Shown: positions 3,148 through 45,903, counted from the first letter of the stretch. The stretch: DNA of 64,000 nucleotides from Nitrososphaerota archaeon (GCA_011605725.1 JAAOZP010000012.1:74238-138237); one strand, 5' to 3'. Made by a program: numbers and translations. Notes: generated by a model from the letters alone, not told the origin.

Positions 3148-3175
3148 ACAGGGATAGGTTAGCAGGTGGCTCACA

Positions 3176-4687: not shown

Positions 4688-5930
4688 GCAGAAGTATGAC
4701 GTTATCATCATAGGTGGAGGCCCAGCCGGATTATCAGCTGCAGCCAAGGCTGTTGAAAACGGCTTGAAAACCCTGCTGCTTGAAAACAGGGAAATGCTGG
4801 GCGGCATCCCGTTTCAATGCGTTCACACAGGCTTCGGAATTCATTGTTTTAAGGAAGACTTAACCGGCGGCGAGTTTATTGCTAGACTCATAGATAGGGC
4901 GGTTGAAAAAGGCGTGGAAACCATGGTTAAAACACATGTTTTAAAGATTCAAGTCTACTCAGCGCTGGAGAAGACTGTTTACGCAGCCAGTCCAAAAGGC
5001 TTTTTAAAAATCCAGGCTAAAGCAATAATTTACGCTGCCGGTGCGCGTGAGAGACACCAGTATGAGATTGGCCTAGCTGGGGATAGGCCTGACGGTGTTT
5101 ACACGGCTGGCGAGGCCCAGGCCTTAATGGATGTTTACGGCGTCCTACCGGGTAAGAAGATAGTTATCATAGGCTCTGGAGACGTGGGACTCATAATGGC
5201 GAGAAGGCTTGCAATGGAGAGGGCTGAGGTTAAGGCTGTGATAGAAGTTTTACCATATCCAGGTGGCTTAACGCGAAACATCGTTCAGTGTTTAAACGAT
5301 TTCAACATTCCGCTTTACCTGAGCCACATGGTTCGCGAGGTTAAGGGGAGTGAAAGGGTTGAAAAAGTAATTGTAACAAGGGTTGGTGAAGACATGAAGC
5401 CGGACGGTAGCTTTGAATTCGAGCTTGAATGCGACACAGTCATTGTTTCAGCCGGGTTAAAGCCAGATGTTGATATTCTCGAGAAGATTGGTGTTGAAAC
5501 TGATCCTGCAACCGGGGGACCGGTTGTGAACGAGTTTTACGAAACCAGTGTGCCACTTGTCTTCACAGCGGGTAACGCGCTTGTCGTAAACGATCTTGTA
5601 GACTACGACGTGGAGCAGGGTGAGGCTGCAGCAACCCATGCTTTAAAACTCCTGGGAGACTACCTATCTCCACGGTTAGAATGGAGGCGGGTCGAAAGGG
5701 GGAGGAACATAAGGCTCATAGTGCCTCAGCTAGTAAGCGGCTCTAAGGACGTCGTGTTTTACAGTAGGGTTCAGTATCCTGAAGACAATGTGCGGCTCAC
5801 AATTCGGGAGACAGGGTTTGAAAAAAGGTTTTTCAAGGTTAAGCCAGCGGAGATGATTAGAATCATGATTCCGGCTGAAGAGCTGGCTAAAGCTCGTAGG
5901 GGAAAGATCACTTTCGAGGTGGTTCGATGA
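4680..5930 (+). CDS. FAD/NAD(P)-binding oxidoreductase (pyridine nucleotide-disulfide oxidoreductase-like partner of GlpA-like protein)
   Basis: N-terminal YDVIIIGGGPAGLSAA and second dinucleotide motif KIVIIGSGDVG; start overlaps the preceding stop by 8 nt. Confidence 0.6.
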   Translation: MIEQKYDVIIIGGGPAGLSAAAKAVENGLKTLLLENREMLGGIPFQCVHTGFGIHCFKEDLTGGEFIARLIDRAVEKGVETMVKTHVLKIQVYSALEKTVYAASPKGFLKIQAKAIIYAAGARERHQYEIGLAGDRPDGVYTAGEAQALMDVYGVLPGKKIVIIGSGDVGLIMARRLAMERAEVKAVIEVLPYPGGLTRNIVQCLNDFNIPLYLSHMVREVKGSERVEKVIVTRVGEDMKPDGSFEFELECDTVIVSAGLKPDVDILEKIGVETDPATGGPVVNEFYETSVPLVFTAGNALVVNDLVDYDVEQGEAAATHALKLLGDYLSPRLEWRRVERGRNIRLIVPQLVSGSKDVVFYSRVQYPEDNVRLTIRETGFEKRFFKVKPAEMIRIMIPAEELAKARRGKITFEVVR

Positions 5931-6304
5931 GTAGAATCGTAGAATATACTTGCATAATCTGCCCTTCCGGATGCTTGTTGAGAGTTGAAGCAGAAGAAAA
6001 CCGTGTGGTGAAGGTAGAGGGCGCGGGTTGTCCAAGGGGCGTTGAATACGCTAAGCAGGAGTTTTCAGACCCAATGAGAATTGTTTTTACGGTGGTTAGA
6101 GTGAGAAACGGAGAGCTGCCTACAGTTTCCGTGAAGACAACTAGACCGATACCTAAGAATAAGGTTTTCAACCTTATGAAGATGCTCGCGTCAATAGAGC
6201 TTGAGGCCCCGGTTGAGATAGGGGAGATTATAGTTGGCGACGCGTATGGCGCCGAAGTGGTTGCTACTAGAAGAGTGGGAAGACGAGAACCTGTAGCCGG
6301 TTGA
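5927..6304 (+). CDS. DUF1667-like small Cys-rich protein
   Basis: 125 aa; CIICPSGC...GAGCPRG motif; start overlaps upstream stop by 4 nt, the usual position of DUF1667 genes next to GlpA-like flavoproteins. Confidence 0.55.
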   Translation: MSRIVEYTCIICPSGCLLRVEAEENRVVKVEGAGCPRGVEYAKQEFSDPMRIVFTVVRVRNGELPTVSVKTTRPIPKNKVFNLMKMLASIELEAPVEIGEIIVGDAYGAEVVATRRVGRREPVAG

Positions 6305-6356
6305 CATACTAGGCTTAACAGTTTAAACAATAAGGCTTATTAGGAAAACGAACAGG

Positions 6357-7469
6357 TTGCCCCCTATGGATTTGGATGAAGCTTTAAAGAGGATTTTCGA
6401 AGAAGCTGGAAAGCTTATACGCAAATGCTTGTTGAAGGCTTCAGACGGGACAACTCTTTTCAGGCCAGACGGTGGAGGAAACTATAACGCGCTCTGGACA
6501 AGAGACTTCTGCTACATGCTTGAAGGTCTTCCAAACCTTATTCCGCACGACGATGCTGTCAAAGCCTATCTCTACATACTTAACCGTCAGAGGAGGGACG
6601 GGGCTATTCCAGATAGAGTTGACCCTGATGGGAAACCATATTACAATGTTTTAGGCTCAAGCCCTCCAACTGATAATCCCCAGTTCGCTGTCAAAATAGC
6701 GTGGAAAATATGGCGTGCTTATGGAGATGTCCACCCCTTCATCCTAACTGCCGACAGGCTTGAGAAAGCCTTAAGCTCACTTCCGTTGAGCAAGGAGGCT
6801 GATTTAATCTGGATCAGCCCCGGCAGCCCGCATTCATCCTACGGTTTTACAGACTGCGTTGCTAAAACCGGTGAAGAACTTTTTTCATCACTACTCCTTT
6901 ACGAGGCGCATGTTAAAATGGCGGAGCTCTATGGTGCTGCGGGAAGAATAGAGGAGGCGAGGATGCATGAGGCTAAAGCGGTAAGAGTAAAAAGCTCGCT
7001 GGGAAAACTGTGGTCTGGGGAAGGCTATTTCTTCGCAGCCTCCGTAGACTGTAGGCAACCTGACGTATGGGGGTCAGCCTATTCCGTATGGGTAGAGGCG
7101 GTTGACAGCAGGAGAGCCCTGGAGATTTCAAAGTGGCTTTCAAACAGCTTCGAAAAGACAGTTAAATGGGGGCAGGTTAGGCATTTGCCTGAGCCCTTTG
7201 TCTGGGAGAAAACCCTCACGGAAATCAAGCCCGGCACCTATCAAAACGGGGCCTATTGGGGGACGGCAGCAGGATGGGTTGCCCACGCTATATCGCTTAC
7301 CAATCGTCAACTGGCTGAGCGAATGTTGATAGACCTGATTGAATTCTGCGAGGCAGAAGGGAAAGCGTGGGAATGTGTCAACCTGGATTACAGGAAGTGC
7401 CCGGACTACGTGGCTACTTTAGCCTGTCCCTCAGCAATAATTGAGAAGCTTAGGAATGACCGGATGTAG
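6357..7469 (+). CDS. Hypothetical protein, possible (alpha/alpha)6-barrel glycosidase-like
   Basis: 370 aa ORF; LWTRDFCYMLEG resembles the W-x-RD motif of six-hairpin glycosidases; weak assignment. Confidence 0.3.
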   Translation: MPPMDLDEALKRIFEEAGKLIRKCLLKASDGTTLFRPDGGGNYNALWTRDFCYMLEGLPNLIPHDDAVKAYLYILNRQRRDGAIPDRVDPDGKPYYNVLGSSPPTDNPQFAVKIAWKIWRAYGDVHPFILTADRLEKALSSLPLSKEADLIWISPGSPHSSYGFTDCVAKTGEELFSSLLLYEAHVKMAELYGAAGRIEEARMHEAKAVRVKSSLGKLWSGEGYFFAASVDCRQPDVWGSAYSVWVEAVDSRRALEISKWLSNSFEKTVKWGQVRHLPEPFVWEKTLTEIKPGTYQNGAYWGTAAGWVAHAISLTNRQLAERMLIDLIEFCEAEGKAWECVNLDYRKCPDYVATLACPSAIIEKLRNDRM

Positions 7470-7487
7470 ACATGGGGGCGACTATTC

Positions 7488-8561
7488 ATGGAGCCGCGTG
7501 AAAGGGTTTACAGTGTTCTTAAAGGAAGAATGCCCGACAAGATCCCTTGGCTAATATATTCAAACCATCTTCCGAGAGGAAGCTTTGAACGTAGGATGAG
7601 AGAAATGGGGCTTGGACTTGATGAAAGATGCAGCATATACAGAGTATCCATGCCGAACGTCAAGATAGAGAGCAGAACAGTGGGCGACTACGTTTACACT
7701 ATTTACCGTACTCCGGTTGGTGAGCTGAAATCAACTACACGAATCGGAATGAGGTTTCAGTTTCCAGGCGGCTCGTGGACTGTTGAGCATCCTGTGAAAA
7801 ACGCGAGCGACATCAATGCTTTAATGTTCATGATAGAGGACACGGTCTACGAGCCGGATTACGAGAACTATGTCAGGATCAGGGAAGAACTTGAGGGAGA
7901 CGGGATTGTCACTGTTTGGGCTGACTACACGCCTCTTATGAAGATAATCATCAGATACATGGGTTTCAAAAACTTTTCAATCATGTATCGGAGAAACAGG
8001 GAGGTAATTGAGGAGCTGGTGGAAGCTCTGGATAAGAGTTTTCTAAAAATGTATAGGATAATAGCCGACTCGCCTGCTGAGATAGTTAGGATCGGTGATA
8101 ACATTGACTCGATGCTCATATCTCCAAGCCTCTTCGAGAAATACTGTTTACCATACTACAATAAGTATGTTGACATTCTTCACGAGAAAGGCAAGATTGT
8201 TATTTCACATATGGACGGTAGGCTTAAAGCACTTAAAAACCTCATCGGAGAAACAAGGCTGGACGCTATAGAGGCTTTCACACCCCCGCCTGGAGGAGAC
8301 CTTTCCCCGAAGGAGGCTAGGGAAGCCTGGAGAAATAAAGTGGTTTGGATGAATTTTCCCGAGGAAGTGTTTCTGAGAACACCGGAAGAAATAAGGAGCT
8401 TCACATTAAGACTACTGGAGGAAATTGCTCCTGGAAAAGGCTTTGTAATAAGTGTTACTGAAGATGCTCATCCAGACCACTATAGAAAAGGGATTGAAAC
8501 AGTTACTGAAACACTTTACAAACACGGCGGCCTGCCGATAAAACCACCGCTAACCAGGTGA
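7488..8561 (+). CDS. Uroporphyrinogen decarboxylase (URO-D) family protein, methyltransferase-like
   Basis: 357 aa; N-terminal PRERVYSVLKGRMPDKIPW pattern and overall length typical of URO-D/MtaA-like TIM-barrel proteins. Confidence 0.5.
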   Translation: MEPRERVYSVLKGRMPDKIPWLIYSNHLPRGSFERRMREMGLGLDERCSIYRVSMPNVKIESRTVGDYVYTIYRTPVGELKSTTRIGMRFQFPGGSWTVEHPVKNASDINALMFMIEDTVYEPDYENYVRIREELEGDGIVTVWADYTPLMKIIIRYMGFKNFSIMYRRNREVIEELVEALDKSFLKMYRIIADSPAEIVRIGDNIDSMLISPSLFEKYCLPYYNKYVDILHEKGKIVISHMDGRLKALKNLIGETRLDAIEAFTPPPGGDLSPKEAREAWRNKVVWMNFPEEVFLRTPEEIRSFTLRLLEEIAPGKGFVISVTEDAHPDHYRKGIETVTETLYKHGGLPIKPPLTR

Positions 8562-8736
8562 CTAGAAGCCTAAGACTTGAAAAACTTTTTGTCAAAGCCG
8601 TTTTTAAAGCGAAGTTTGCTTGAAAAATACACCCGACTCATACGTGTCTAGCCCGGCTTACCCCTATGGGCAGAAACAGGACTACGGTAACCAAAAAGTT
8701 AAAATATTTTCAGTATTCTCGTGTGGATGAGGAGAA

Positions 8737-9492
8737 ATGGGAATAGCGTTGCAGCTCTACTCAGTACGCGAAGACTGCGCTAAGGATTTTGAGGGAACTC
8801 TTAAGGCAGTTGCAGAAATGGGTTACGAGGGGGTTGAGTTCGCAGGATATTACGAGAGAAGCGCTGAAAGCCTTAGAGCAATCCTTGACGATCTTGGTTT
8901 AAAAGTTGCTGGAACACATATAAGTATAGATACTCTGCTCGGCGAAAAGCTTGGTAAGACTGTTGAGTTTAACCGTGTCTTGGAGAACAAGTTTCTAATA
9001 GTTCCAGGCCTGCCTGCTGAAATGCTGAGTTCGAAAAAAAGTTGTCTTGAGACAGCCAATCTTTTCAACGAAATCGCTAGAAAGCTCAGGAAGGAAGGGA
9101 TGAGGGTCGGCTATCACAACCATATGATGGAGTTCAAAACTGTTAACGGTGAGAGAATATGGGACTTGTTCTTCGGCTCCACCATCCCCGAGGTAGTGAT
9201 GCAGCTCGACACGGGGAACGCGATGCATGGAGGAGTTGATGCAGAGGGCATTTTGGAGATAATTCGGAAATACCCAGGCAGGGCATTAACCGTGCACGTT
9301 AAAGAGTATTCCTCTAAAAATCCAAAGGCAGTGGTTGGAGAAGGAGAAATGAAGTGGCGTGAATTCTTCGAGCTGTGTAAAACAACGGGTGGAACCGAAT
9401 GGTATATTGTTGAGCAGGAGAGCTACGCCTATCCGCCTCTAGAATGCGTGAAGCGCTGCCTGGAGAACCTTAGAAGAATGAGGCTCGTGTAA
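8737..9492 (+). CDS. Sugar phosphate isomerase/epimerase (xylose isomerase-like TIM barrel)
   Basis: 251 aa; LQLYSVRED...GYEGVEFAGY and later HNH/E-rich metal-site pattern typical of the family. Confidence 0.7.
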   Translation: MGIALQLYSVREDCAKDFEGTLKAVAEMGYEGVEFAGYYERSAESLRAILDDLGLKVAGTHISIDTLLGEKLGKTVEFNRVLENKFLIVPGLPAEMLSSKKSCLETANLFNEIARKLRKEGMRVGYHNHMMEFKTVNGERIWDLFFGSTIPEVVMQLDTGNAMHGGVDAEGILEIIRKYPGRALTVHVKEYSSKNPKAVVGEGEMKWREFFELCKTTGGTEWYIVEQESYAYPPLECVKRCLENLRRMRLV

Positions 9493-9623
9493 GACTGTCT
9501 TAGATACCAGTTTTCAAATCATTTTTAAAAGACTAAATCAACCGTCTTAGTATATTAAAAGAAACAATTAAAATGCTAAAATTTAAAAAGACACGATTAA
9601 CTTAAAACCTTAGAAAATTGGAA

Positions 9624-9628
9624 GGAGG
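9624..9628 (+). promoter_or_regulatory. Shine-Dalgarno-like ribosome-binding site (GGAGG) 9 nt upstream of the ATG at 9638; AT-rich putative promoter region 9493-9620
   Basis: Sequence gaaGGAGGagtgaacagATG read directly. Confidence 0.4.
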
Positions 9629-9637
9629 AGTGAACAG

Positions 9638-10426
9638 ATGAAAATAATGTACGAATTTATTCCTAAAGCAAACTTTTTAGATTTAGCTGAAGAAATAAAG
9701 GATTTAGTAGATGGCTTTAACATCACGGATAGTGCAGGAGGAATACCTGCCCCCAGTGCTACTGCAGTAGCCTGTGCGATTAAGATAAAATATCCTCAAA
9801 AAATAATAATCCCCATGCTAATTACTAATTATAAGGGACCTGTTGAAATTGCCGCTGCAGCAAGTGCTTGTGAAGCCTTAGATATTTATGGAATGGTGCC
9901 TGATCCGGGAGATGCTCCTAAATACGGATATCCGATAAGGACAAGAAGAGACGGAACCTGTGAAATGCTTTCCGATAAAGAGGAGATTGAAAGATTTAGA
10001 CGTGCAACTGGTCCTGCAGAGGAAGTTAGAGATTTCCTTCGTAATATCGTAAAGATAAAAAAGCTAAAATTAGGCTGTCTTTTAACTAGCCGTAGACCAA
10101 CTGAAGAGGCGGTTGCACGCATAAGAGATGCTTGGGATTTCTGTCTCTTCTTACGCTTAGAAAAGGCTTCTCTACCAAAGTTAAAGGAATTGGCTTTGGA
10201 GTGTAGAAATCTAGGAAAACCCATATATCCCTATTTTGTGGTCGAGACACCTAGAAATAAAAAGATTCTGGAAAGAATCGGATGGCCTTCTACAACAACC
10301 CTGGAAAAAGCAGAAGAATTTTTAGCAGAGCTTCAAGGCGTTGTAGACGGTATAATTTCAACTTGCCTTGGAGACATCGAGGCGGATAAAAAGCTGCTTG
10401 ATAAACTGCAGAAATTTAGGGAATAA
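9638..10426 (+). CDS. Methylenetetrahydrofolate reductase-like protein (short MetF-like)
   Basis: 262 aa; YEFIPKA...FNITDSAGG...MVPDPGD parallels the SFEFFPP / VTDGAGG / LALRGDPP blocks of MTHFR; sits in a folate gene cluster. Confidence 0.55.
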   Translation: MKIMYEFIPKANFLDLAEEIKDLVDGFNITDSAGGIPAPSATAVACAIKIKYPQKIIIPMLITNYKGPVEIAAAASACEALDIYGMVPDPGDAPKYGYPIRTRRDGTCEMLSDKEEIERFRRATGPAEEVRDFLRNIVKIKKLKLGCLLTSRRPTEEAVARIRDAWDFCLFLRLEKASLPKLKELALECRNLGKPIYPYFVVETPRNKKILERIGWPSTTTLEKAEEFLAELQGVVDGIISTCLGDIEADKKLLDKLQKFRE

Positions 10427-10706
10427 AAGGAGAACTTATTTCGTTTACAAGGCGCTTTGAAAGATGAAGCCATACTATTACAATCGAGCGAATAAAAAAT
10501 GCTATAATATTTAATGATTTGATATAGTATGGATACGTGAAAACAATGGTCGATAAGGCTGTTAAAACGCTTAATGCCGGATTTCCATACGTGTGGATGG
10601 AAAGGAACTTGAAGAAGACATATAGAAGTCATTAAAAGACTGATGGCGTAGGGCGTTAATAGCCTCAGAAAGCCTTAAATGTCGGCTATTTGTCATGCAT
10701 GAGAAA

Positions 10707-10711
10707 GGAGG
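10707..10711 (+). promoter_or_regulatory. Shine-Dalgarno-like site (GGAGG) 9 nt upstream of the fhs ATG; TTAAAT TATA-like element at 10675-10680
   Basis: Sequence ccTTAAATgtcggctatttgtcatgcatgagaaaGGAGGcgttgaacaATG read directly. Confidence 0.35.
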
Positions 10712-10720
10712 CGTTGAACA

Positions 10721-12457
10721 ATGCCTGTGAAAAAAAGCTGGCCTGTGCCGAGCGACATTGAAATAGCTTATAAAGCCGAGCTTCATCCAATTAATAAGGT
10801 TGCGGAGGACATTGGGATTCTGGATGAAGAACTTGAGAATTATGGCAAGTATATAGCTAAGGTAGACTATAGGAGCATTCTAAATAGGCTGAAGAATAGG
10901 CCTCGCGGCAAATTGATCATAGTAACTGCAATCACACCTACACCCCTAGGCGAGGGGAAAACAACTGTTTCAATAGGTTTAGGTCAAGCATTCTACGAAA
11001 GGGGTTTTAAAGTTATTAACACTCTGCGCGAACCATCGAAAGGCGTCACCTTCGGAATAAAAGGAGGTGCAACCGGCGGCGGCTACTCTCAAGCCTTACC
11101 TATGGACAGGATTAATCTTAATTTCACTGGAGACATACCAGCAGTAGAAATTGCCCATAACCTTTGTGCAGCAGCTGTAGACGCCAGCATACTTCACGGA
11201 AATCCTTTAAGCATCGACCCCTTATCAATCGAATGGCCCTATTGCATGGATGTTGAAGCTAGGGCTTTAAGACGAGCCGTCATAGGATTGGGGGGAAGGT
11301 CAAACGGCTATCCTAGAGAAGCGCGCTGGAGCATAACTGTAGCGACGGAAACAGCGGCCATTCACGCATTGGCAACTGGGTTGGAAGACTTGAGGAAGAG
11401 GCTGGGAAGAGCCGTCGTCGCCTACACCTATGATAGGAAACCGGTAACGTGTGAAGAGCTTGGAGTAGCAGGAGCAATGGCCGCCCTGCTCGTGGAAGCC
11501 ATTAAACCTAATCTAGTTCAATCTACAGAGGGTCACCCGGTTTTAATCCACGGATTCCCGTTTGCCAACATAGCACACGGAACCAACTCGATCATAGCCG
11601 ATCTAGTAGCTTTGAAGCTTGCGGATTACGTTATCTGCGAAACCGGGTTTGGCTCTGAATGCGGCTTTTCAAAGTTCTGCGACATTGTATGCCGCCAGTC
11701 CCCAGAGATAAGGCCTGACTGCGCCGTCATCGTCTGCACTGTTAGAGCCCTTAAAGAACACGGTGGCGCCTTCATGCTTCGTCCAGGAATGCCCTATAAG
11801 AAAGTTAAGAGGGCTGCGGAAACAGAAAACCTCCAGGCGGTTGAAAAAGGTTGTGAGAATTTAGCTAAACACATAGAAATAGTCCATAAATACGGTATTC
11901 CAGCCGTAGTAGCCATTAACAGGTTTATCACAGACAGCGAGAGGGAGATAAGGCTTGTGTGCGAAAAAGCCGTCGAGGCTGGTGCTGATGAGGTTGCAGT
12001 TGTAGACCCCTGGTCTAAAGGAGGAGAGGGCTGCCAAGAACTTGTTGACAAGGTTCTCGAAGTAATGAAGAAGCCTCGTGAACTGAAGTTTCTTTACCCC
12101 GATAAAGCCACCATCAAGGAGAAGATAGAGAAAATAGCTACTGAGCTCTATGGAGCCGGCGACGTGAAATATTCTCCTGAAGCAGAGGAAAAGATAGAGT
12201 TTTACACCAGCCTAGGGTACGATGGGCTTCCGGTAAACATGGCTAAAACACCCCTCTCCCTTTCGCACGACCCTCTCTTGAAAAACGTGCCTAAGAACTA
12301 TACGTTTCCAGTCAACGATATTTTCGTCTTCGTTGGAGCCGGCTTCCTCATACCGATATGCGGCGAAATACAGCTTATGCCCGGCCTCCCGAGAAAACCG
12401 GCTTTCCTAGGAATTGACGTGGACACGGAAACTGGAAGGATAAGAGGCCTCTTCTAA
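10721..12457 (+). CDS. fhs: Formate--tetrahydrofolate ligase (formyltetrahydrofolate synthetase)
   Basis: 578 aa; diagnostic PTPLGEGKTTVSIGL nucleotide-binding motif and full-length similarity pattern. Confidence 0.95.
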   Translation: MPVKKSWPVPSDIEIAYKAELHPINKVAEDIGILDEELENYGKYIAKVDYRSILNRLKNRPRGKLIIVTAITPTPLGEGKTTVSIGLGQAFYERGFKVINTLREPSKGVTFGIKGGATGGGYSQALPMDRINLNFTGDIPAVEIAHNLCAAAVDASILHGNPLSIDPLSIEWPYCMDVEARALRRAVIGLGGRSNGYPREARWSITVATETAAIHALATGLEDLRKRLGRAVVAYTYDRKPVTCEELGVAGAMAALLVEAIKPNLVQSTEGHPVLIHGFPFANIAHGTNSIIADLVALKLADYVICETGFGSECGFSKFCDIVCRQSPEIRPDCAVIVCTVRALKEHGGAFMLRPGMPYKKVKRAAETENLQAVEKGCENLAKHIEIVHKYGIPAVVAINRFITDSEREIRLVCEKAVEAGADEVAVVDPWSKGGEGCQELVDKVLEVMKKPRELKFLYPDKATIKEKIEKIATELYGAGDVKYSPEAEEKIEFYTSLGYDGLPVNMAKTPLSLSHDPLLKNVPKNYTFPVNDIFVFVGAGFLIPICGEIQLMPGLPRKPAFLGIDVDTETGRIRGLF

Positions 12458-12647
12458 GCGCACCGGTATCTGCTCACTGTTCTTCAAAATATTCTGAGCT
12501 GCTATGGTGAAGCGTCTGGAGAGAACTGTGTAGAAAGTAACACTCTTAGACAGGGAGACTGCTTAAACAACTGCTGCGAGAACAGTCTCCCCTAACCATT
12601 ATAGGGTGAAGCTTTACGAACCTTCTAAAAGTATAAAAAGGGGATAG

Positions 12648-13571
12648 GTGAAATGGATGAGGATGTTCAGGTTTAAGCAGGAACAGAAAATTTTTGATAT
12701 TGCCGGCGTGAAGATTGGCGGCCAGCCTGGTCAACTACCTACTGTCATGATGGGAAGCATATTCTACAGTAAACAGAAAATATTTGAGGATGAGAAGGCG
12801 GGAGTATTCTCTAAAGAGAAGGCTGAAGACTTACTGAATAAGGAGAGGGAGATATCGGACAAAACCGGTAATCCGAGGATTGTAGACGTATGCTGCACAT
12901 GGCCCCAGGCTTTTGGAAAACTCATCGAGTTCGTGGCTGACAAGATCGATGGGCCCCTAGCTATAGATGGAACCACTGAGGAGGCGAGGATTGCTGGAGC
13001 CAAGTATGTCGGCGAAGTCGGGTTGTCTGAACGCGTCGTATACAACTCGATAATGCCGCATATTAAAGAGGTGGAGATAAACGCGATTAGGGAGGCGAGG
13101 ATCAAATCCGCCGTCTTACTTACATATAACGCTAAAAACCCTACGATAACAGGAAGGATGCAGGTGCTTGACGAGCTTTTAGCATTAGCCTCGAAAGCGG
13201 GAGTTGAGAAAACACTGGTGGATACGACTGTCCTCGACATCCCTGATCCAGGACCAGTCAGCAAAGCCGTATACTTGGTGAAGGAGAAATACGGGTTGCC
13301 AGCTGGAGCGGGAACGCATAACGCAGTCCAGAGGTGGAACAAGATGCGTAGAATGGATAAAACACTTTTCTCAATCGCAAGCAGCGTAGCCGACGTGCTT
13401 CCAATATTCATGGGGGCGAACTTTGTAATATACGGGCCGATAGATAATGCCTCAAACGCGTATTTCCACTGTGCACTGGCTGACGCTTACGTAGCCTATA
13501 GCGTGCGGCAGGAGTTTGGAACAAGACCGTTAACCAGTAACCATCCATTGTTCAAAATATTCAAAACATAG
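12648..13571 (+). CDS. MtrH-family pterin methyltransferase (tetrahydromethanopterin S-methyltransferase subunit H-like)
   Basis: 307 aa; N-terminal FRFKQEQKIFDIAGVKIGGQPGQLPTVMMGSIFY resembles the conserved MtrH N-terminus; length fits. Confidence 0.6.
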   Translation: MKWMRMFRFKQEQKIFDIAGVKIGGQPGQLPTVMMGSIFYSKQKIFEDEKAGVFSKEKAEDLLNKEREISDKTGNPRIVDVCCTWPQAFGKLIEFVADKIDGPLAIDGTTEEARIAGAKYVGEVGLSERVVYNSIMPHIKEVEINAIREARIKSAVLLTYNAKNPTITGRMQVLDELLALASKAGVEKTLVDTTVLDIPDPGPVSKAVYLVKEKYGLPAGAGTHNAVQRWNKMRRMDKTLFSIASSVADVLPIFMGANFVIYGPIDNASNAYFHCALADAYVAYSVRQEFGTRPLTSNHPLFKIFKT

Positions 13572-13615
13572 AGGTACGAGCAGTATAGACTCTTTAATTT
13601 GATTTTCATCCCCGT

Positions 13616-14224
13616 TTAACGAAGTATCCTAACCTTCCCATGCTCGACTACGATTCTTCCTTCCTCGAAGAGACGGATACCCTCAACTAAGGCTTCACCC
13701 TCAGCCTCTTGAACCCTCTTCTTCAAAGTCTCCTCATCATCATCCTCCCTGACTTCAACAGCCTTCTGTATTATTATTGGCCCAGCATCCATCTTCTCGT
13801 CAACAAAGTGGAGAGTACAACCTGTAATCTTCACACCGGATTTAAGCACCGCACGGTGTACGTTCAGGTCCCATCCTGGAAAGGCTGGGAGAAGCGAGGG
13901 ATGAATGTTCATAATCCTATTCCTAAACTTTTCCACAAACTTGGAGCTCAGGATCCTGTTGTAACCTATGAGCAGAACTAGGTCAACCCTCCTACGCTCA
14001 AGCTCTGAAGCGACCTGCATATCGTAATCCACGGGATCCTTACCCTTAGGGTCTATGAATATTGCTTCTATACCGTTCCGTCTCGCCCTCTCCAGTGCAT
14101 ACGCGTCCTTCCTATTGCTTATGAGGCAGACTATTTCAGCATTCAACTTCTTGTTTCTAATCGCCTCTAGAATGGGTTCCATGACGGTGGCACGGGTTGA
14201 TGCAAGCACCCCTATTCTCAGCAT
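13616..14224 (-). CDS. purN: Phosphoribosylglycinamide formyltransferase
   Basis: 202 aa; MLRIGVLASTRATVMEPIL and NIHPSLLPAFPG motifs typical of PurN. Confidence 0.8.
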   Translation of the reverse strand: MLRIGVLASTRATVMEPILEAIRNKKLNAEIVCLISNRKDAYALERARRNGIEAIFIDPKGKDPVDYDMQVASELERRRVDLVLLIGYNRILSSKFVEKFRNRIMNIHPSLLPAFPGWDLNVHRAVLKSGVKITGCTLHFVDEKMDAGPIIIQKAVEVREDDDEETLKKRVQEAEGEALVEGIRLFEEGRIVVEHGKVRILR

Positions 14225-14230
14225 TTCAGA

Positions 14231-15064
14231 CTACGAGACCTCTGAGGCACATTCCACCAGATTGCGTATTATGGTTGCAACCGTCACCGGACCCACTCCA
14301 CCTGGAACCGGGGTTATCGCAGACGCTTTTTGAGAGACGCTTTGAAAATCAACATCCCCAACGAGAGTGCCTTCAACGAAGCTGGTTCCAGCATCGATTA
14401 CTACAGCGCCTTCAGCAACCATCTCGTCTGTTATGAGCCTTGGGACACCGGTTGCGGAGATTAAAACATCTGCCTTCAAAGTCTTCTCGCTCAAGTTTTT
14501 AGTCTTGACATGGCAAACAGTGACTGTTGCCATTCGCGAAGTTAGCATTGCGAACAATGGTCTTCCGACGAGAATACTGTTGTTCACAATAACAACGTCA
14601 GCACCCTCTACGTTAATTCCATACCACTCCAAAATCCTGATCACAGCGTTCGCCGTCGCCGTGGGCCTGGCCTCCCGACCAGATAACAATCTTCCCAGAT
14701 TTATCGGATGCAGACCGTCAACATCCTTCTTAACGTCTAAGGCTTCTAATACGTTTAGGGTTGACACGTTTTTCGGAAGCGGTAGTTGGACCACTATTCC
14801 ATGAACACCCGTATCCTCGTTCAACTTCTTTATGAGTGAAATGAGCTCGGCCTCGGAAGGATTGTTAAGCTCATGCACCACTGCTTTCCCCCCTACAGAG
14901 TTGCAGGCTTTAGCCTTCATCTTAACGAAAGAATCTTGGGCCTTTGAGTCCGAGGCCTTTATAATGTGTAGTGACGGCGTGAAACCCAGTTTCTCAATCC
15001 TTGTCTTAGCCTCAGCCAGCATCGCTTCAGCCACTGGCTTGCCGCTCAATATCTTACCCGCCAT
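14231..15064 (-). CDS. folD: Bifunctional methylenetetrahydrofolate dehydrogenase / methenyltetrahydrofolate cyclohydrolase
   Basis: 277 aa; N-terminal ILSGKPVAEAMLAEAK and overall FolD layout. Confidence 0.9.
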   Translation of the reverse strand: MAGKILSGKPVAEAMLAEAKTRIEKLGFTPSLHIIKASDSKAQDSFVKMKAKACNSVGGKAVVHELNNPSEAELISLIKKLNEDTGVHGIVVQLPLPKNVSTLNVLEALDVKKDVDGLHPINLGRLLSGREARPTATANAVIRILEWYGINVEGADVVIVNNSILVGRPLFAMLTSRMATVTVCHVKTKNLSEKTLKADVLISATGVPRLITDEMVAEGAVVIDAGTSFVEGTLVGDVDFQSVSQKASAITPVPGGVGPVTVATIIRNLVECASEVS

Positions 15065-15370
15065 TGGGAATCACCTTGGCTCATTGTAAACCGTAAATCC
15101 CGGCACAAGACCTCTTAAAACAGCGCGCACTCCACGTGCTCTGCTGAGTCTTGCTCTCCAACCCTGGGGGTTACGCCCAACCCTAGTTTCAGCCTCATCA
15201 ACCTTAACCAGTTCCCCGATCAAACGAAGCATCGTGTCCTTCTTCAGACAGAAGCATCCTTATAAATGCTTCGATCCCGTTGCCCTCATCATCCGAAATT
15301 TTAATGAACCGTTTTTCAAGTTCAAATCCAGAATGAGCATGCGCCTTTAAAGCATAGATTCCTATTATTC

Positions 15371-16759
15371 ATGAAATGTTTTTATAGGGAACTTCTTTTG
15401 CAGTTGAGAATGAATAAAGGATCCGGCAACGCTAAGAATGAATTCAGGAAACTAGCAAGGGAAAGGATCTTAGCAATGCCTGATCAGCAGAGGAGGGAGA
15501 AGAGCTCAAGGGTGGTCTCGAATCTTAAAAGTCTAGAGGAGTTTTCGAGAGCGAAGTGCGTCATGGTTTACGTTTCTAAAGAGGATGAAGTTGACACGAT
15601 CAGGCTCATTACTGATATGTTGAAATCAGGTAAAAGAGTTGTGGTGCCCCTTGTTGATGAAGGAAGCGGGGAGCTGGTTCCATGCGAGATATCAGCTCTC
15701 GAAGAGCTGGTTGCCGGAACATTCGGCGTGATGGAGCCGGATCAGAAGAACATGAGAATCGTTAGCATGGATGAAATAGACCTTGTGGTGGTTCCTGGAA
15801 GAGCTTTCGACAGAAATTGCAACAGGCTTGGCAGAGGAAAGGGTTATTTCGACAGGTTTTTAAAGAGGTTTGGTAAAGGGAAGAAGGTAATTGGTTTAGC
15901 CTTTTCTGAACAGGTTTTCGAAAAAATACCGGTTGACGAGAACGATGTGAAGGTTGACATCGTGGTTACTGAATCCAGCATTATACGGCGCGACTCAGGA
16001 GAAACGAGAACAAGCATAAATAGAAAAAAGTTCGACGTACATAAGCTTGCTACCACCTCCCTGTTCACAGCGCTCTTCATCGTGCTAAGGGCAATCCCAG
16101 CATTCCCTATCATAGGTGTACCTGGAGGAAGCTTCCCGGTTTCAGATGCCATTCAGCCGCTTTACGGCGTCTTGCTAGACCCAGTTCACGGTGCAACCGT
16201 AATCCTCCTTGGGACAATTCTCGGTTTCTCAATAAAGCCTCCTAGGTTCCTCTATCTAGACTTCCTACCACCGCTCGTCAACACTTTGACTGTGAGTTTA
16301 CTCTGGAGGGGGAAAACATGGTTAGCACTCCTTATTTATTTTTCCGTATTAACCGCTTTCATGACAAGCCCGTTTAGCCTACTCCTTCTACGCCTCAACC
16401 TTTTTGGCTTAGAGGTGGAACTGCCGTTTCACTGGCTGCACCTAACCGCAATACCCCTATCTCTGATTCTCATCAGACTTAGCAGTTTTAAGCTTAAGGT
16501 TGATCGAATTGTATTGAAGTTTTCAGGATGCGCCCTACTCGGAACCATGGCGCAACACTCTATGGGTAGTTCTCTTTTCGAATACGTGTACGGCTTAACC
16601 GGAATGATAAACAGAGAAGGGTTTGAAAAAATCTGGTATATGGTCTTCTGGATATATCCCATAGAGAGGATGCTTCTAGTCCTAGCCAGCACGCTGGTTG
16701 GAGTACCTGCTACACGAGTATTGACCAAGATAATATGGAGGTCTCAGAATCCATCGTAA
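15371..16759 (+). CDS. 5-formyltetrahydrofolate cyclo-ligase fused to a C-terminal polytopic membrane domain
   Basis: First ~210 aa carry PGRAFDRNCNRLGRGKGYFDRF typical of 5-FCL; the remaining ~245 aa form about six hydrophobic helices in the same uninterrupted frame. Confidence 0.65.
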   Translation: MKCFYRELLLQLRMNKGSGNAKNEFRKLARERILAMPDQQRREKSSRVVSNLKSLEEFSRAKCVMVYVSKEDEVDTIRLITDMLKSGKRVVVPLVDEGSGELVPCEISALEELVAGTFGVMEPDQKNMRIVSMDEIDLVVVPGRAFDRNCNRLGRGKGYFDRFLKRFGKGKKVIGLAFSEQVFEKIPVDENDVKVDIVVTESSIIRRDSGETRTSINRKKFDVHKLATTSLFTALFIVLRAIPAFPIIGVPGGSFPVSDAIQPLYGVLLDPVHGATVILLGTILGFSIKPPRFLYLDFLPPLVNTLTVSLLWRGKTWLALLIYFSVLTAFMTSPFSLLLLRLNLFGLEVELPFHWLHLTAIPLSLILIRLSSFKLKVDRIVLKFSGCALLGTMAQHSMGSSLFEYVYGLTGMINREGFEKIWYMVFWIYPIERMLLVLASTLVGVPATRVLTKIIWRSQNPS

Positions 16760-18072
16760 GGCTCACCTGACCATATTGGTCTTGCTTCCCCAACGGTGAA
16801 AACCGAGCCCGTAACCAGTATTCTACCTTCTTCCCCAGCACGCGATAATGCTAGAGCCACTGCCTCTCTAACAGTCGGCTCAGAACAGTATTTAGCATTC
16901 ATACTCTTCAAAACATCTGCCATGCTCTCAATCGGAAGAGCTCTTCCCATGACGCCATGCTGAGTCAGGATGAACTCGTCCGTGATCCTTGCGACAGACC
17001 TGAGAATCTTATCATACTCTTTATCTGAAGAAATACTAACAACTGTTTTAAACCTGGCTCCCGGCAACATCTCCTCTATGCTCGAAGCTAATGCTTCAGC
17101 AGCCGCCGGATCCTTTGCACAATCCAATATGACTAAAGGGTGTTTGCTAATGGGCTCCAGCCTCCCTGGCCAAACAACGTTAGCAAGACCCCTTCTCACG
17201 GCTTCCTCATTGAAGTTTGATTCACCCCTTAGCTCTGAGAACTTCAGATAGCTAGCTATGGCCGTCGACACGTTTACTGCCTGAAAACTCCCCCTGAGCG
17301 AAACCTTAAGGTTCTCTAACAGTGTTCCCGCAAGTTCAACATTCAAAGTTATCCCGGTCAAGTCAGACTTTAAAACCCTGTGCTTAACATCCCTAGGTAC
17401 TAAGGTGAGCTCTGAGCCCAATTCCCTGCAGCGTTCCTCCACGACCTTAAGCGCTGGGCCTGAACAAGCCGATACAGTTGGGCGTCCACGCCTTATTATG
17501 CCTGCTTTCTCAAAAGCTATTTTCTCAACAGTATCACCCAGGTGCTTCATATGCTCTAAAGAAACATTGGTTATGACTGAGAGCACTGGGTCACACGCGT
17601 TTGTCGCATCAAGCCTGCCTCCCATACCAACCTCGACGACAGCTACATCAACATGCTTCATCGAGAAATATTTATACGCCATGGAGACGTTGCACTCGAA
17701 AAAAGTTGGGAAACGTCCTAACCTTTGCGAAACTTTTTCACCAGCCTTTTTAACCTCCTCATAGGTCTCCACGACTTCTCTCCTAGTTATTTCCCGGCCA
17801 TCTACAACTATTCTCTCTGTGAACCGGCAGAGGTGCGGCTTCGTGAACGTTCCAACCTTAAGACCTTCCTCGCGTAGGATTGAGCTGATCATGCTGACGG
17901 TAGAGCCCTTCCCATTAGTACCTCCTACTAGGATTACAGGATAATCCTGCTCCGGGTTTCCAAGCTCGTTTAAAAGCCCCTTAACGACGTCCAAGCCTAG
18001 TTTTATCCCCCTCAGCTCATAGAGCTCCTTTAGAACCCGCAGGTACTCAAGGTCATCGGTCCAAGCGCTCAA
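16744..18072 (-). CDS. folC: Folylpolyglutamate synthase / dihydrofolate synthase
   Basis: 442 aa; Mur-ligase P-loop ILVGGTNGKGSTVSMI and FolC-like length. Confidence 0.85.
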   Translation of the reverse strand: MSAWTDDLEYLRVLKELYELRGIKLGLDVVKGLLNELGNPEQDYPVILVGGTNGKGSTVSMISSILREEGLKVGTFTKPHLCRFTERIVVDGREITRREVVETYEEVKKAGEKVSQRLGRFPTFFECNVSMAYKYFSMKHVDVAVVEVGMGGRLDATNACDPVLSVITNVSLEHMKHLGDTVEKIAFEKAGIIRRGRPTVSACSGPALKVVEERCRELGSELTLVPRDVKHRVLKSDLTGITLNVELAGTLLENLKVSLRGSFQAVNVSTAIASYLKFSELRGESNFNEEAVRRGLANVVWPGRLEPISKHPLVILDCAKDPAAAEALASSIEEMLPGARFKTVVSISSDKEYDKILRSVARITDEFILTQHGVMGRALPIESMADVLKSMNAKYCSEPTVREAVALALSRAGEEGRILVTGSVFTVGEARPIWSGEPYDGF

Positions 18073-19270: not shown

Positions 19271-19948
19271 CTATTTTAAAACCATTTTAGCATCTACAAC
19301 AGTCGCGCTAGTCTGATTCAAAACAACCGGGTTTGCATCTAAGCCAAGAATATGCTTCCCATATTCCTCCCCTATTGCTGAAAACCTTAAAACCAGATTC
19401 ACGAATGCGGCCTTGTTAACCCGTATATTCCTGAAGCCCTCCAGCAGTCCCCTGCCTTTCAACTCGCTTATCATTTCAAGCACGTCCACCCTTGAAACGG
19501 GAACCACTCTGGTCGAAATATCCTTATAGATTTCAGTATATATTCCTCCGATTCCAATCATTATACACATTCCGAAGTAATCGTCGTGAATCAGGCCGCA
19601 GATCATATCTACGTTTCCACTCACCATCTCCTCAACCAGCAGAGTTTCCCCTCCAAACTTCTCTCTGAAAACCTTGACGGAACGCTTGAGCTCAGACATA
19701 CTCCTTATGTTCAGTAAAACTCCACCCACATCCGTCTTATGGATAAACCTGTTGGAAGAAACCTTAAGGACAACGGGGAATCGTAAAACTCCTGCTTTAC
19801 TTAAATCCGAAATTTTCTCGACCACCACAAAACGGGGAACAGTTATTCCTTGGCTTTTCAGAAACGGCTTAACCAGATGCTCCGGTATATTCTTGCTTCC
19901 GGTCTCGGAAGCATAGTTCAAAATCCTTTTAAAAAATTTCTCGCTCAT
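19271..19948 (-). CDS. Acetyl-CoA synthetase (ADP-forming), beta subunit (ATP-grasp)
   Basis: 225 aa ATP-grasp-like ORF whose start overlaps the stop of the alpha-subunit gene by 4 nt. Confidence 0.7.
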   Translation of the reverse strand: MSEKFFKRILNYASETGSKNIPEHLVKPFLKSQGITVPRFVVVEKISDLSKAGVLRFPVVLKVSSNRFIHKTDVGGVLLNIRSMSELKRSVKVFREKFGGETLLVEEMVSGNVDMICGLIHDDYFGMCIMIGIGGIYTEIYKDISTRVVPVSRVDVLEMISELKGRGLLEGFRNIRVNKAAFVNLVLRFSAIGEEYGKHILGLDANPVVLNQTSATVVDAKMVLK

Positions 19949-21444
19949 CCTGCTCCACTTCTGTTCTTCCCTATTTTTAATAAATACTTTCCCCTCTCGT
20001 AAAGAACACGGAGAGAGAGAACTGCACGCCTTATGTCTGGGAAAACAGGCATGCCTCTGGACTCAAGCATCCTTATCACCTCCTCTGAATGCAGCCCTCC
20101 GATGATGCATGGAACCATCGGTTTCTTACCGTTTTTAAACCACCACCATGCAATCTCAACCAGCCTGTCCGTAGTGTAAGGAGTTTGAAGCAGTAGAAAA
20201 GCAAGTATGCCGTCAGTATTCTCATCCTCGTTCACAATCCTGAAAACATGGTCAAACATCTCGTCAGTAACGTTCCCAGTAAGGTCGACGGGATTATTCA
20301 CTGAAGCGAAGCTCGGCAGTTTTTCCCTAAGCCTCTTCTTCGAGTCATGAGAGAGTTCAGCCATTCTCAACTCTCCCCCGACGTTTCTATCCTCAATGTA
20401 ATCAGCCGCGATTACCCCATAGCCTCCACCTGACGTCACCACGACGATGTTTGGACCAAAAATCGGCTTCTGGTAGGCAAGAATACGTGAATAGTCGAAG
20501 AGTTCCAGAAGATCATTCGCCCTGATCACCCCGACTTGCTTTAAGGCTCCATCCATAGCTTGACTCGGCTTAGCCATAGAGCCGGTGTGCAACATAGCTG
20601 CCCTCGCACCCGTCTCGGTTCTTCCGGCTTTAAGTATCACTACAGGTTTGTAGGGAGTAATTTTCCTGCAAAGCTCGAGTAAGCGTCTCCCGTCTGCGAA
20701 GCTTTCAATATGCATGCATAACACCTTAGTTTTATCATCCTTGGAAAAGAATTCGAGCATATCGTTCTCGTTAACGTCCAGCTTGTTGCCCAGGCCGACG
20801 AAGGCGGAAATACCATATTGATGGTACTCAGCCATATCCATGAAGCCACTTGCAGAAGCCCCGCTTTGAGAGATGTAGGCTATTGGACCGTCAGGCGGCC
20901 TCCTAGACTTCTCCCTTAGTACAAACATCGTGTCCAGGCTTTCGCTAGGAACATAAACACCCAGCGTGTTTGGCCCAAGCAACACCATGTTTGTATTAGC
21001 GATCCTATTTTTAATCTCTTCCTCCAGTTTACGCCCCTCCTCCCCCGTTTCGCCGAAGCCTGCGGAGATAACTATAACCGCCTTAACGCTCTTTCTAATG
21101 CAATCATCAATCACGCTTGGAACACTTCTAGCAGGCACAGCAATGACCGCGAGATCAACATCCTCAGGAATATCGCTAACTCTCCCATATGCTTTCACAC
21201 CGTCAATAGTCTCCTGCTTAATGTTGACAGGATATTTCCTACCGGGAAAACTCTGCAGGTAGCTCCACATTATCCCGCCTATTTTAAGCCTGTTTGAAGA
21301 AGCCCCGATTAAAGCAACGCTTCTAGGATGAATTAAATAGTTTAAGTTAGAATACCTCTCTTTTACACGCCTACGAGAGGACATTTCTAATCCGTAAGCC
21401 GGTTGAACCTGGCTTCGCCGACGCTTGCTGTAGCTCACACTCAA
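19945..21444 (-). CDS. Acetyl-CoA synthetase (ADP-forming), alpha subunit (CoA-binding plus succinyl-CoA synthetase-like domains)
   Basis: 499 aa; CoA-binding N-terminus HPRSVALIGASSNRLKIGG; true start may be an internal Met. Confidence 0.75.
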   Translation of the reverse strand: MSVSYSKRRRSQVQPAYGLEMSSRRRVKERYSNLNYLIHPRSVALIGASSNRLKIGGIMWSYLQSFPGRKYPVNIKQETIDGVKAYGRVSDIPEDVDLAVIAVPARSVPSVIDDCIRKSVKAVIVISAGFGETGEEGRKLEEEIKNRIANTNMVLLGPNTLGVYVPSESLDTMFVLREKSRRPPDGPIAYISQSGASASGFMDMAEYHQYGISAFVGLGNKLDVNENDMLEFFSKDDKTKVLCMHIESFADGRRLLELCRKITPYKPVVILKAGRTETGARAAMLHTGSMAKPSQAMDGALKQVGVIRANDLLELFDYSRILAYQKPIFGPNIVVVTSGGGYGVIAADYIEDRNVGGELRMAELSHDSKKRLREKLPSFASVNNPVDLTGNVTDEMFDHVFRIVNEDENTDGILAFLLLQTPYTTDRLVEIAWWWFKNGKKPMVPCIIGGLHSEEVIRMLESRGMPVFPDIRRAVLSLRVLYERGKYLLKIGKNRSGAG

Positions 21445-44838: not shown

Positions 44839-45903
44839 TTAAGCATCGCATTCACCATAATAATTCATGAGGCTTTCGAAAGCCGTGCAAACCGCGTCTA
44901 TGTTTTCAAGCGGAACATCTGCATGAATCTCTGAATACATCATTAATCCTCCTTTCTCAGAACCGAGCTTGACAACAGCCTCATGAATGTGGCTCCTGAT
45001 TTCCTCAGGATTGCCGAAGGGGACAAGGAGTTGACGGTCTATATCCAGGTCGATGCAAACCCTCCCCTTGATCTCCTCTCTAATATTGTCTAGCCCGTTA
45101 ACCCGGTCCTGAATATTTAAGACTGAAACACCCGCTTCCATAAGGGCATCAGCCACCTCCATTATGTGGCCGTCAGTATGCAGGTAAACCCTTATCCCTG
45201 AATCCCTGACTCTCCCGAATATTTTCCTGTATGAAGGATAGATAAACCTTCTGAACGTCTTAGGGCTTATTGGCATCCTGTCTTGAAGACCAAGATCGTC
45301 CCCGAAGGAAACCATGTCAACCCTGAGCCTGATGAATCTTTCAACAAGAGCAAGATTATACTCGGTCAACATCTCTATTAGTTTTTCAAGCTGACTAGTG
45401 TTTCTCACGAAGTCCATCATCAGGTTTTCAAATCCTCTCAGATAATAGAGCCTTTGGAAGAAGAAGCCGTGAGGCATACTTCCGACAATAACATCATCCA
45501 TTTTCCTAGCATTTTCTATTCTCTCCTCAATCGCATCCCACGGGTCTAACCCACCACCCTCCTGAACAATGCCTTTCTCCGGATCGGGTAGACTATAGTG
45601 CGCAAAGTCAGACCAATCCTTCAAAGGGTGCTTCACAACCTGACCCTGCAACCCGCTTATGTTAAACCTCCATAAGCATCCGAAGTCATCCAAAACCTCT
45701 CTACCCTTCAACCTGCTTCCGAAGTTGTTAAAGTCGACACTTCCCTTCTTGAACGTTGGGAAAAGCCTAGGATGCCTAGCGAGCAGGTCCTCAAGCTTAT
45801 CCCTATACTTGCTCCAAGTCGTTGGGAAAATTCCCACTCTACAAGGGATCCACCCGCAACCATTCATGTCTATGACTCTAAGCTTTTTCACTCTGATGCT
45901 CAA
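44839..45903 (-). CDS. URO-D family protein (uroporphyrinogen decarboxylase-like, putative methyltransferase)
   Basis: 354 aa; C-terminal half (YLHTDGHIMEV...) follows the URO-D TIM-barrel pattern. Confidence 0.5.
   Translation of the reverse strand: MSIRVKKLRVIDMNGCGWIPCRVGIFPTTWSKYRDKLEDLLARHPRLFPTFKKGSVDFNNFGSRLKGREVLDDFGCLWRFNISGLQGQVVKHPLKDWSDFAHYSLPDPEKGIVQEGGGLDPWDAIEERIENARKMDDVIVGSMPHGFFFQRLYYLRGFENLMMDFVRNTSQLEKLIEMLTEYNLALVERFIRLRVDMVSFGDDLGLQDRMPISPKTFRRFIYPSYRKIFGRVRDSGIRVYLHTDGHIMEVADALMEAGVSVLNIQDRVNGLDNIREEIKGRVCIDLDIDRQLLVPFGNPEEIRSHIHEAVVKLGSEKGGLMMYSEIHADVPLENIDAVCTAFESLMNYYGECDA

Follow-up and report, generated by a model that had tools for sequence, protein, structure and literature searches.

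A tetrahydrofolate one-carbon gene island of a Brockarchaeota-type archaeon carries a member of an unnamed family of remote methylenetetrahydrofolate reductase homologs

One of the closest described counterparts of the locus reported here is the tetrahydrofolate (THF) methyl branch of the archaeal phylum Brockarchaeota. De Anda et al. (2021; PMC8065059) propose that these archaea carry out non-methanogenic methylotrophy via this branch and the reductive glycine pathway, and they state that the phylum lacks carbon monoxide dehydrogenase/acetyl coenzyme A synthase (CODH/ACS) and MtaA, that MtaB and MttB are present along with corrinoid proteins, and that an “undescribed protein” must transfer methyl groups from corrinoid to THF. 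They report methylene-THF reductase (MTHFR, encoded by metF) in three metagenome-assembled genomes (MAGs) only, neither DRTY-6.80 nor GD2_1 being among them, and metF as missing from most Brockarchaeota MAGs. Comparable gaps are reported for Bathyarchaeia, in reconstructions that are missing mer/metF (Qi 2021), and for most Methanomassiliicoccales, and they lead authors to call one-carbon (C1) pathways incomplete. Here we analyze a 64,000-nucleotide (64-kb) stretch of DNA labeled Nitrososphaerota archaeon (GCA_011605725.1 JAAOZP010000012.1:74238-138237; “the window”), in which an island of seven open reading frames (ORFs), taken from the ORF list of the window, occupies positions 9638 to 18072. 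The first of these ORFs encodes a protein that we call X, whose relationship to MTHFR is our main subject.

We conclude, with a probability of roughly 70%, that the island is a conserved THF C1 module of a Brockarchaeota-type hot-spring archaeon in which X provides the methylene-THF reductase step. The island itself has already been published for the phylum, and the new part is the hidden, unnamed MTHFR-like family to which X belongs. An earlier note, made from the sequence alone, had named seven genes within this region, and all seven are present there as ORFs. In Pfam and NCBIfam profile searches with curated cutoffs, six of the seven score above the hidden Markov model (HMM) thresholds, namely, those for Fhs, an MtrH-family protein, PurN, FolD, 5-formyl-THF cyclo-ligase (5-FCL), and FolC. 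The exception is X, which the note had called MetF-like.

X (262 amino acids [aa]; positions 9638 to 10426, plus strand) is a non-canonical, MTHFR-like (beta-alpha)8 barrel, as judged from its fold, a superfamily profile, profile-profile alignment with hhalign, and the metF-type positions that its relatives occupy elsewhere. The AlphaFold2 model is a confident (beta-alpha)8 TIM barrel (pLDDT, 93.8), and its best Foldseek matches in the PDB are MTHFRs (Haemophilus and E. coli MetF and the fungal, yeast, and human enzymes), together with the mycobacterial flavin-independent Mfr. Structure comparison with the model gave scores of 17.6 for E. coli MTHFR, 17.5 for the yeast enzyme, 17.2 for the Thermus enzyme (20% identity), and 17.0 for Mfr. 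The modeled barrel can be superimposed on solved MTHFRs and resembles MTHFR, Mfr, and Mer structures.

Sequence profiles point the same way. A superfamily profile, for which 66 sequences of the family and its wider superfamily were combined, was searched against the PDB and retrieved 18 chains at E values of ≤10, 16 of which are MTHFRs, as are all 13 chains with E values of <0.01. In the best match, 1v93 (E = 2.2e-6), the motif “hlrl..lrGDkP” is aligned to “HLT..LRGDPP” of MetF. When a widened X alignment was compared with E. coli MetF by hhalign (probability, 80%; E = 1.4e-5), E6 of X was paired with the catalytic glutamate E28 of MetF, and G91-D92 was paired with G119-D120, which includes the pterin-binding aspartate. 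Few residues are conserved throughout the superfamily, but E6, G91, and D92 belong to them, being invariant or at least 90% conserved in the 66 members. Gehl et al. (2024) showed active-site positions A and D to be common to MTHFR, Mfr, and Mer, and E6 and D92 of X correspond to these two positions. Based on the profile search, hhalign, and the fold, X is a remote and very divergent MTHFR homolog that standard annotation misses. Adding the genomic positions of its relatives, we infer that X is probably a non-canonical methylene-THF/methyl-THF oxidoreductase.

The family is large and nearly anonymous. About 670 clusters (90% identity) match X, and all are named “hypothetical” and are without Pfam domains, except one that was named MTHFR by JGI. 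In the family alignment, members from different phyla are 58 to 80% identical, and 43 residues are invariant. A search of 1.84 billion representative proteins gave only 86 matches at E values of ≤1e-3; most of these are relatives of ∼225 to 255 aa with 21 to 36% identity, and one distant relative (P0150) exceeds the Pfam MTHFR threshold (30.6 bits versus 24). Our literature search found no description of the X family, although coverage of the literature was partial, and this result is hence not proof of novelty.

Several sequence results weigh against the assignment of X to MTHFR. X has no Pfam or NCBIfam match at an E value of ≤0.01, and the specific test for the canonical family gave no significant match to PF02219 or to the NCBIfam metF models. 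A phmmer search of the PDB with X returned chance matches only (E ≥ 0.34). The homology depends on bridging through relatives that are ∼30% identical, and hhalign found no link between the close-family alignment alone and E. coli MetF. Even with the widened alignment, the match spans only the N-terminal half of X, without active-site positions B and C. Finally, MetF residues His88 and Arg118, which we take to be flavin adenine dinucleotide (FAD) contacts in the E. coli enzyme, are aligned to Met60 and Pro90 in the X clade. Because these residues are replaced, flavin loss in the X clade is possible; distant relatives of ∼238 aa retain “H..RL...RGD.” The MetF-like label of the earlier note therefore fares unevenly: it fails in the Pfam and NCBIfam searches, an outcome that the note itself had named as counting against it, and it is right in substance according to the superfamily profile, hhalign, and the fold.

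The genomic distribution of X adds evidence of a different kind. In a homolog scan that used one genome per GTDB species, X was found in at least 269 species-level genomes, spread over Bathyarchaeia, Brockarchaeota, Hadesarchaea, Nitrospirota, Acidobacteriota, Actinomycetota, Chloroflexota, Acetothermia, and Desulfatiglans. Two bacterial contigs carry X within clusters that read AcsE, Fhs, (CODH/ACS), X, FchA, and, further on, FolD and AcsD. In the loci L025 (Acetothermia) and L029 (labeled Thermotogaceae), a demethylation operon that yields methyl-THF, encoding in order MttB, a methyltransferase that binds pterin, a B12 corrinoid protein, and RACo, is followed by X and Fhs; another Acetothermia locus (L021) has RACo-X-Fhs. 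X lies between glyA (encoding serine hydroxymethyltransferase, on the divergent strand) and metH in two Acidobacteriota. X thus occupies metF-type positions in other lineages. Because at least four independent associations, including X-Fhs-MtrH in Brockarchaeota, place X with enzymes that make or use methylene- or methyl-THF, we consider it likely that X interconverts these two forms.

Other neighborhoods argue against so uniform a role. Four Desulfatiglans-type genomes encode X directly after Archease, RtcB, and a hybrid histidine kinase (loci of this type are L036, L038, L039, L041, and L097 to L099), and one Actinomycetota genome (L031, positions 4920 to 8385) has RtcB and Archease upstream of X. 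The same Actinomycetota genome encodes a canonical MetF (258 bits) 2.5 kb downstream of X, and X is therefore not always a MetF replacement. Many X neighborhoods are silent on folate, and some contain mobile-element genes. The neighborhoods of the proteins P0034, P0075, P0056, P0112, P0135, P0126, and P0150 were uninformative. A sister clade, P0121 (43% identical; L090 to L093, positions 4252 to 5771), is preceded at 33 bp, on the same strand, by a gene for a 238-aa flavoprotein (PF02441) plus 4Fe-4S ferredoxin, and by analogy with MetV, this flavoprotein-ferredoxin may be an electron transfer partner. Taken together, the mixed genomic contexts suggest that X is a catalytic barrel that stands alone and has different redox partners in different lineages.

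A further complication comes from ∼25 Bathyarchaeia species (L046 to L083; e.g., L073, positions 7000 to 11300), in which X lies between a divergent CofE gene and genes for a nitroreductase, CofD, and in many cases an FrhB-like protein. The Bathyarchaeia proteins are also without a 20-residue insertion present in the window X. These flanking genes would fit an X that is an F420-linked enzyme of luciferase-like fold, either F420 dependent or F420 biosynthetic, with only incidental adjacency to folate genes. We consider this unlikely. X is 53 to 72% identical across lineages, in several of which its neighbors are folate, Wood-Ljungdahl, MetH, or methyltransferase genes, and its sequence profiles match MTHFR and not the luciferase-like families. 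To our knowledge, Nitrospirota, Acetothermia, Acidobacteriota, and Kiritimatiellia are not known F420 producers. Moreover, F420 dependence would be compatible with MTHFR activity, as in Mer, and F420 may be the redox partner of X in Bathyarchaeia.

We assessed whose X this is from the homologs closest to the window. X is 88 to 93% identical to the X proteins of seven MAGs: DRTY-6.bins.80 and GD2_1 (Candidatus Brockarchaeota) and five labeled Thermoproteota, Nitrososphaerota, or uncultured archaeon. The island block and ∼8 kb upstream of it are syntenic in these seven species genomes (Brockarchaeota/Thermoproteota type), with the shared order, as far as each contig reaches, of FGGY kinase, DAO, Pyr_redox, DUF1667, an unknown ORF, URO-D, xylose-isomerase-like, X, Fhs, MtrH, PurN/FolD, 5-FCL, and FolC. 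Since seven independent species genomes share this synteny, the clustering is not due to chance, and the lineage has conserved it. Given near-identical X and matching gene order in seven MAGs labeled archaeal, the window is archaeal and of Brockarchaeota type, and the possibility raised by the earlier note that the contig might prove bacterial is not borne out. We rejected the idea of a misbinned bacterial fragment, since seven independently assembled MAGs labeled archaeal share the same 16-kb synteny, with contigs as long as 181 kb. Metagenome assemblies of hot springs from JGI and ENA contain the same contig as well. Scans of the window for tRNAs and Rfam families found no match, which leaves the taxonomy without an rRNA or tRNA check; a scan for bacterial promoters and terminators gave only background levels, and counts of Shine-Dalgarno and TATA motifs in the window did not discriminate between domains of life.

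Brockarchaeota X is ∼72% identical to Nitrospirota X versus 51 to 55% identical to Bathyarchaeia X. In a neighbor-joining tree (no support values), the Brockarchaeota sequences are nested in a bacterial clade beside Nitrospirota, apart from a clade of Bathyarchaeia and Hadesarchaea. The agreement of tree placement and identities suggests an interdomain transfer of the X gene into Brockarchaeota. One could go further and suppose that, after FAD-dependent MTHFR, Mfr, and Mer, X represents a fourth class of methylene-tetrahydropterin reductase. Such an enzyme would have a compact barrel, probably without flavin, and its hydride would come either from a diffusible carrier or from a separate flavin/Fe-S partner. 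It would be the F420-linked “missing” Mer/MetF of the Wood-Ljungdahl pathway in Bathyarchaeia, and its bacterial version would have been acquired horizontally by Brockarchaeota for methyl-THF oxidation. We offer this idea tentatively, with considerably more doubt than belief.

Downstream of X, the island continues with the gene for Fhs, formate-tetrahydrofolate ligase (10721 to 12457, plus strand; PF01268, 756.9 bits; NF010030, 696.5 bits against a cutoff of 652), and then that for a soluble MtrH/MtgA-family methyltransferase (12648 to 13571, plus strand). Two minus-strand genes follow: PurN, glycinamide ribonucleotide (GAR) formyltransferase, which consumes 10-formyl-THF (13616 to 14224; TIGR00639, 192.7 bits; cutoff, 150.1), and FolD, methylene-THF dehydrogenase/methenyl-THF cyclohydrolase (14231 to 15064; PF02882, 190.7 bits; PF00763, 101.1 bits). 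The last two genes encode a 462-aa fusion of 5-FCL to a C-terminal multipass membrane domain (15371 to 16759, plus strand; TIGR02727, 163.7 bits; cutoff, 84.9) and FolC, folylpolyglutamate/dihydrofolate synthase (16744 to 18072, minus strand; TIGR01499, 333.5 bits; cutoff, 162.65). Intergenic gaps are 145 to 306 bp, except for the 6 bp between folD and purN, which are on the same strand with folD upstream, and for the 5-FCL gene and folC, which converge and overlap. Because the genes are mostly 145 to 306 bp apart, we regard the region as a gene cluster rather than one operon.

The methyltransferase passes the family cutoffs (PF02007, 293.5 bits; NF002142, 298.9 bits with a cutoff of 287; TIGR01114, 273.6 bits with a cutoff of 271.4), in keeping with the MtrH-like label it had been given. 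Translation probably begins not at the GTG but a few codons downstream of it. It scores 267.8 against the MtgA model, below the equivalog cutoff of 550, and it is closer to the solved MtgA 6sj8 (228 bits) than to the Mtr-complex MtrH 9qtp (175 bits). No match to MtrA to MtrG was present among the annotated genes of the window. Because its gene sits among folate enzymes, the protein is, on sequence grounds, the obvious candidate for the “undescribed” corrinoid-to-THF methyl transfer step of De Anda et al. Similar ideas involving MtrAH and THF have been published for Methanomassiliicoccales (Speth and Orphan 2018; PMC6147122) and for Culexarchaeia. Supplementary tables of De Anda et al. list mtrH on the island contigs GD2_1 scaffold_5776 and DRTY-6.80 NODE_9; the main text makes no mention of MtrH. 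In the same material, the K00297 metF matches (62 to 63 bits) belong to a 249-aa COG0685 gene beside two MetE genes and glyA, and for this reason they are not X.

In the 5-FCL fusion, TIGR02727 covers the first ∼200 residues, and the membrane domain, composed of hydrophobic helices, spans residues ∼220 to 455. This domain scores below the cutoffs of ECF transporter-type Pfam models (PF12822, 22.8 bits, with a cutoff of 30.7; PF07155, 22.0 bits) and 17 against TIGR04518; most of its homologs have a precomputed PF12822 match. The fusion occurs in ∼20 protein clusters, and every cluster with a named source is from Thermoproteota or Nitrososphaerota. The N-terminal part of the structure model matches the 5-FCL structure 2jcb (E = 1.5e-11), and the best PDB matches of the C-terminal part other than 5-FCL are the ECF S components PanT, BioY, RibU, and FolT, all of them weak (E = 0.03 to 0.4; TM-score, 0.56 to 0.67). 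These sequence matches and the predicted structure suggest that the fusion may couple folate or folinate salvage to uptake, working with FolC.

Based on these gene identities, we propose the following scheme. Fhs would interconvert formate, ATP, and THF with 10-formyl-THF, FolD would interconvert 10-formyl-, methenyl-, and methylene-THF, and X would interconvert methylene- and methyl-THF. The MtrH/MtgA-type enzyme, whose specificity for THF we infer, would pass the methyl group back and forth between methyl-THF and a corrinoid protein whose gene lies elsewhere. PurN would tap the 10-formyl-THF pool for purine synthesis, and the 5-FCL/S-component fusion and FolC would provide cofactor salvage and polyglutamate tailing. 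The chain would be reversible: either a corrinoid-bound methyl group is oxidized to formate, with ATP formed at Fhs, or a methyl group is built from formate, and the physiological direction may be either. THF-dependent C1 interconversion tied to corrinoid methyl transfer is supported by the data, and no corrinoid protein was found in the window, which weighs against the scheme. The first half of this conclusion had been anticipated by the earlier note and had been published for the phylum by De Anda et al. The methyl-group-oxidizing role that the note had also suggested, or a methyl-assimilating one, fits the MtrH/MtgA-type enzyme of the island and matches the published phylum model.

A real if lesser possibility is that the island is purely housekeeping, without catabolic methylotrophy. 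It would then serve purine synthesis with 10-formyl-THF, the synthesis of dTMP and serine with methylene-THF, and that of methionine with methyl groups, with X as a reductive, biosynthetic MTHFR and the MtrH-like protein passing methyl groups through a corrinoid protein to a core-MetE. PurN, FolC, and 5-FCL are biosynthetic or cofactor maintenance genes, the Acidobacteriota X lies between glyA and metH, and each island gene has its own upstream gap of 145 to 306 bp and is not part of one operon with the others. In addition, the window encodes a core-MetE (57713 to 58669, minus strand), a 318-aa methionine synthase with the Meth_synt_2 domain only, of a type predicted to draw its methyl group from corrinoid proteins and not from methyl-THF (Price 2021). 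Set against this are the placement of X-Fhs directly after MttB-corrinoid demethylation operons (L025 and L029), the RACo-X-Fhs arrangement of L021, and the presence of four URO-D-family paralogs in the window. Brockarchaeota are also described by De Anda et al. (2021) as having MtaB, MttB, and corrinoid proteins and as being without MtaA. Since PurN, FolC, and 5-FCL are part of the island, housekeeping and catabolic roles are inseparable there; the two are, moreover, not mutually exclusive.

The earlier note had also raised an acetogenic, Wood-Ljungdahl-type pathway, in which the island would be the methyl branch of reductive acetyl-CoA synthesis and acetate would be formed via acetate kinase-phosphotransacetylase (Ack-Pta) or ADP-forming acetyl-CoA synthetase (ACD). 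The genes cited for this are indeed present: a bacterial-type Ack-Pta at 52359 to 54571 (minus strand) and both ACD subunits at 19271 to 21444. Fhs, FolD, and an MTHFR-like gene do stand together in the same window as these, and in two bacterial contigs X lies inside true CODH/ACS clusters. However, CODH/ACS, AcsE, and the corrinoid Fe-S protein are not found among the annotated genes of the window, CODH/ACS is reported to be absent from Brockarchaeota MAGs by De Anda et al. (2021), and fermentative acetate formation explains Ack-Pta and ACD equally well. Because there is no CODH/ACS among the annotated genes of the window and none is reported in the phylum, the acetogenic proposal is unsupported, and we regard it as very improbable.

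Other genes of the window provide context for the module. The xylose-isomerase-like TIM-barrel protein encoded directly 5′ of X (8737 to 9492, plus strand; PF01261, 65 bits) is retained in Brockarchaeota, as is a URO-D-family protein distantly related to MtaA and CmuA (7488 to 8561, plus strand; PF01208, 65.4 bits), which is syntenic with the island and scores far below the cutoffs of MtaA-type NCBIfam models. Including the latter, there are four URO-D-family paralogs, the other three being clustered at 44839 to 45903, 46013 to 47122, and 47134 to 48300. The four have only weak similarity to MtaA and CmuA, and each may serve an unknown methylated substrate as a corrinoid-dependent methyltransferase. 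Beside the island-linked paralog, an ORF at 6357 to 7469 (370 aa) is kept in six of the seven Brockarchaeota-type loci; it had no Pfam match and only chance-level PDB matches. Immediately upstream is a glycerol-type module (1570 to 6304), consisting of an FGGY kinase, a DAO/BFD flavoprotein, a Pyr_redox_2 protein, and DUF1667, that is syntenic in those Brockarchaeota-type loci with long enough contigs. The co-occurrence of Ack-Pta and ACD on one archaeal contig indicates two routes to acetate in the organism.

The wider interest of the locus lies in X. If annotation has overlooked a family of MTHFR type, that family could fill many of the metF and mer gaps noted at the outset, and recognizing it would alter which organisms are scored as acetogenic, methylotrophic, or methionine synthesizing. 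The island itself adds little to the 2021 description of the phylum, but it flags an MtrH/MtgA-type gene for the open corrinoid-to-THF step. The proposed function of X is directly testable by simple genetics and enzymology.

Compared with known systems, the island resembles the THF branch of De Anda et al. (2021): it shares the phylum, some of the same contigs, Fhs and FolD, and THF C1 metabolism without CODH/ACS, and it differs in that X was not recognized and that neither the clustered arrangement nor the 5-FCL fusion appears in the passages covered here. The acetogenic Wood-Ljungdahl pathway has Fhs and FolD in common with the island, whereas its CODH/ACS, corrinoid Fe-S protein, and AcsE are not among the annotated genes of the window. 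The MtrH-like protein is similar to MtgA of Desulfitobacterium hafniense (6sj8) and to the MtrAH proposed for Methanomassiliicoccales (PMC6147122), which are soluble MtrH-family enzymes that act between corrinoid and THF outside the membrane Mtr complex, and it may likewise use THF. Unlike that of MtgA, its gene sits among folate enzymes and not beside an MttB/MtgB-type partner and a corrinoid protein.

For X itself, three classes of enzyme serve as references. Like FAD-dependent MTHFR/MetF (PF02219), it has a (beta-alpha)8 barrel with a glutamate after strand 1 and Gly-Asp after strand 4, and it occupies the same genomic niches, in a Wood-Ljungdahl cluster, beside metH or glyA, and after methyltransferase operons. 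Unlike MetF, to which it is ∼12 to 14% identical, X is shorter (262 aa), has the 20-residue insertion after strand 4, has replaced the counterparts of His88 and Arg118, and has no MetV or Hdr partner adjoining it in the loci examined. The mycobacterial flavin-independent Mfr (MSMEG_6649; PDB 7wmz and 8bgr) has no detectable sequence relationship to X, and the close Mfr homologs in early jackhmmer rounds were all from Actinobacteria (Price 2021). The F420-dependent Mer (PDB 1f07) is a luciferase-like family member that uses tetrahydromethanopterin (H4MPT) as its substrate, without a sequence profile link to X; F420 genes adjoin X only in Bathyarchaeia, and X lies outside the luciferase-like family.

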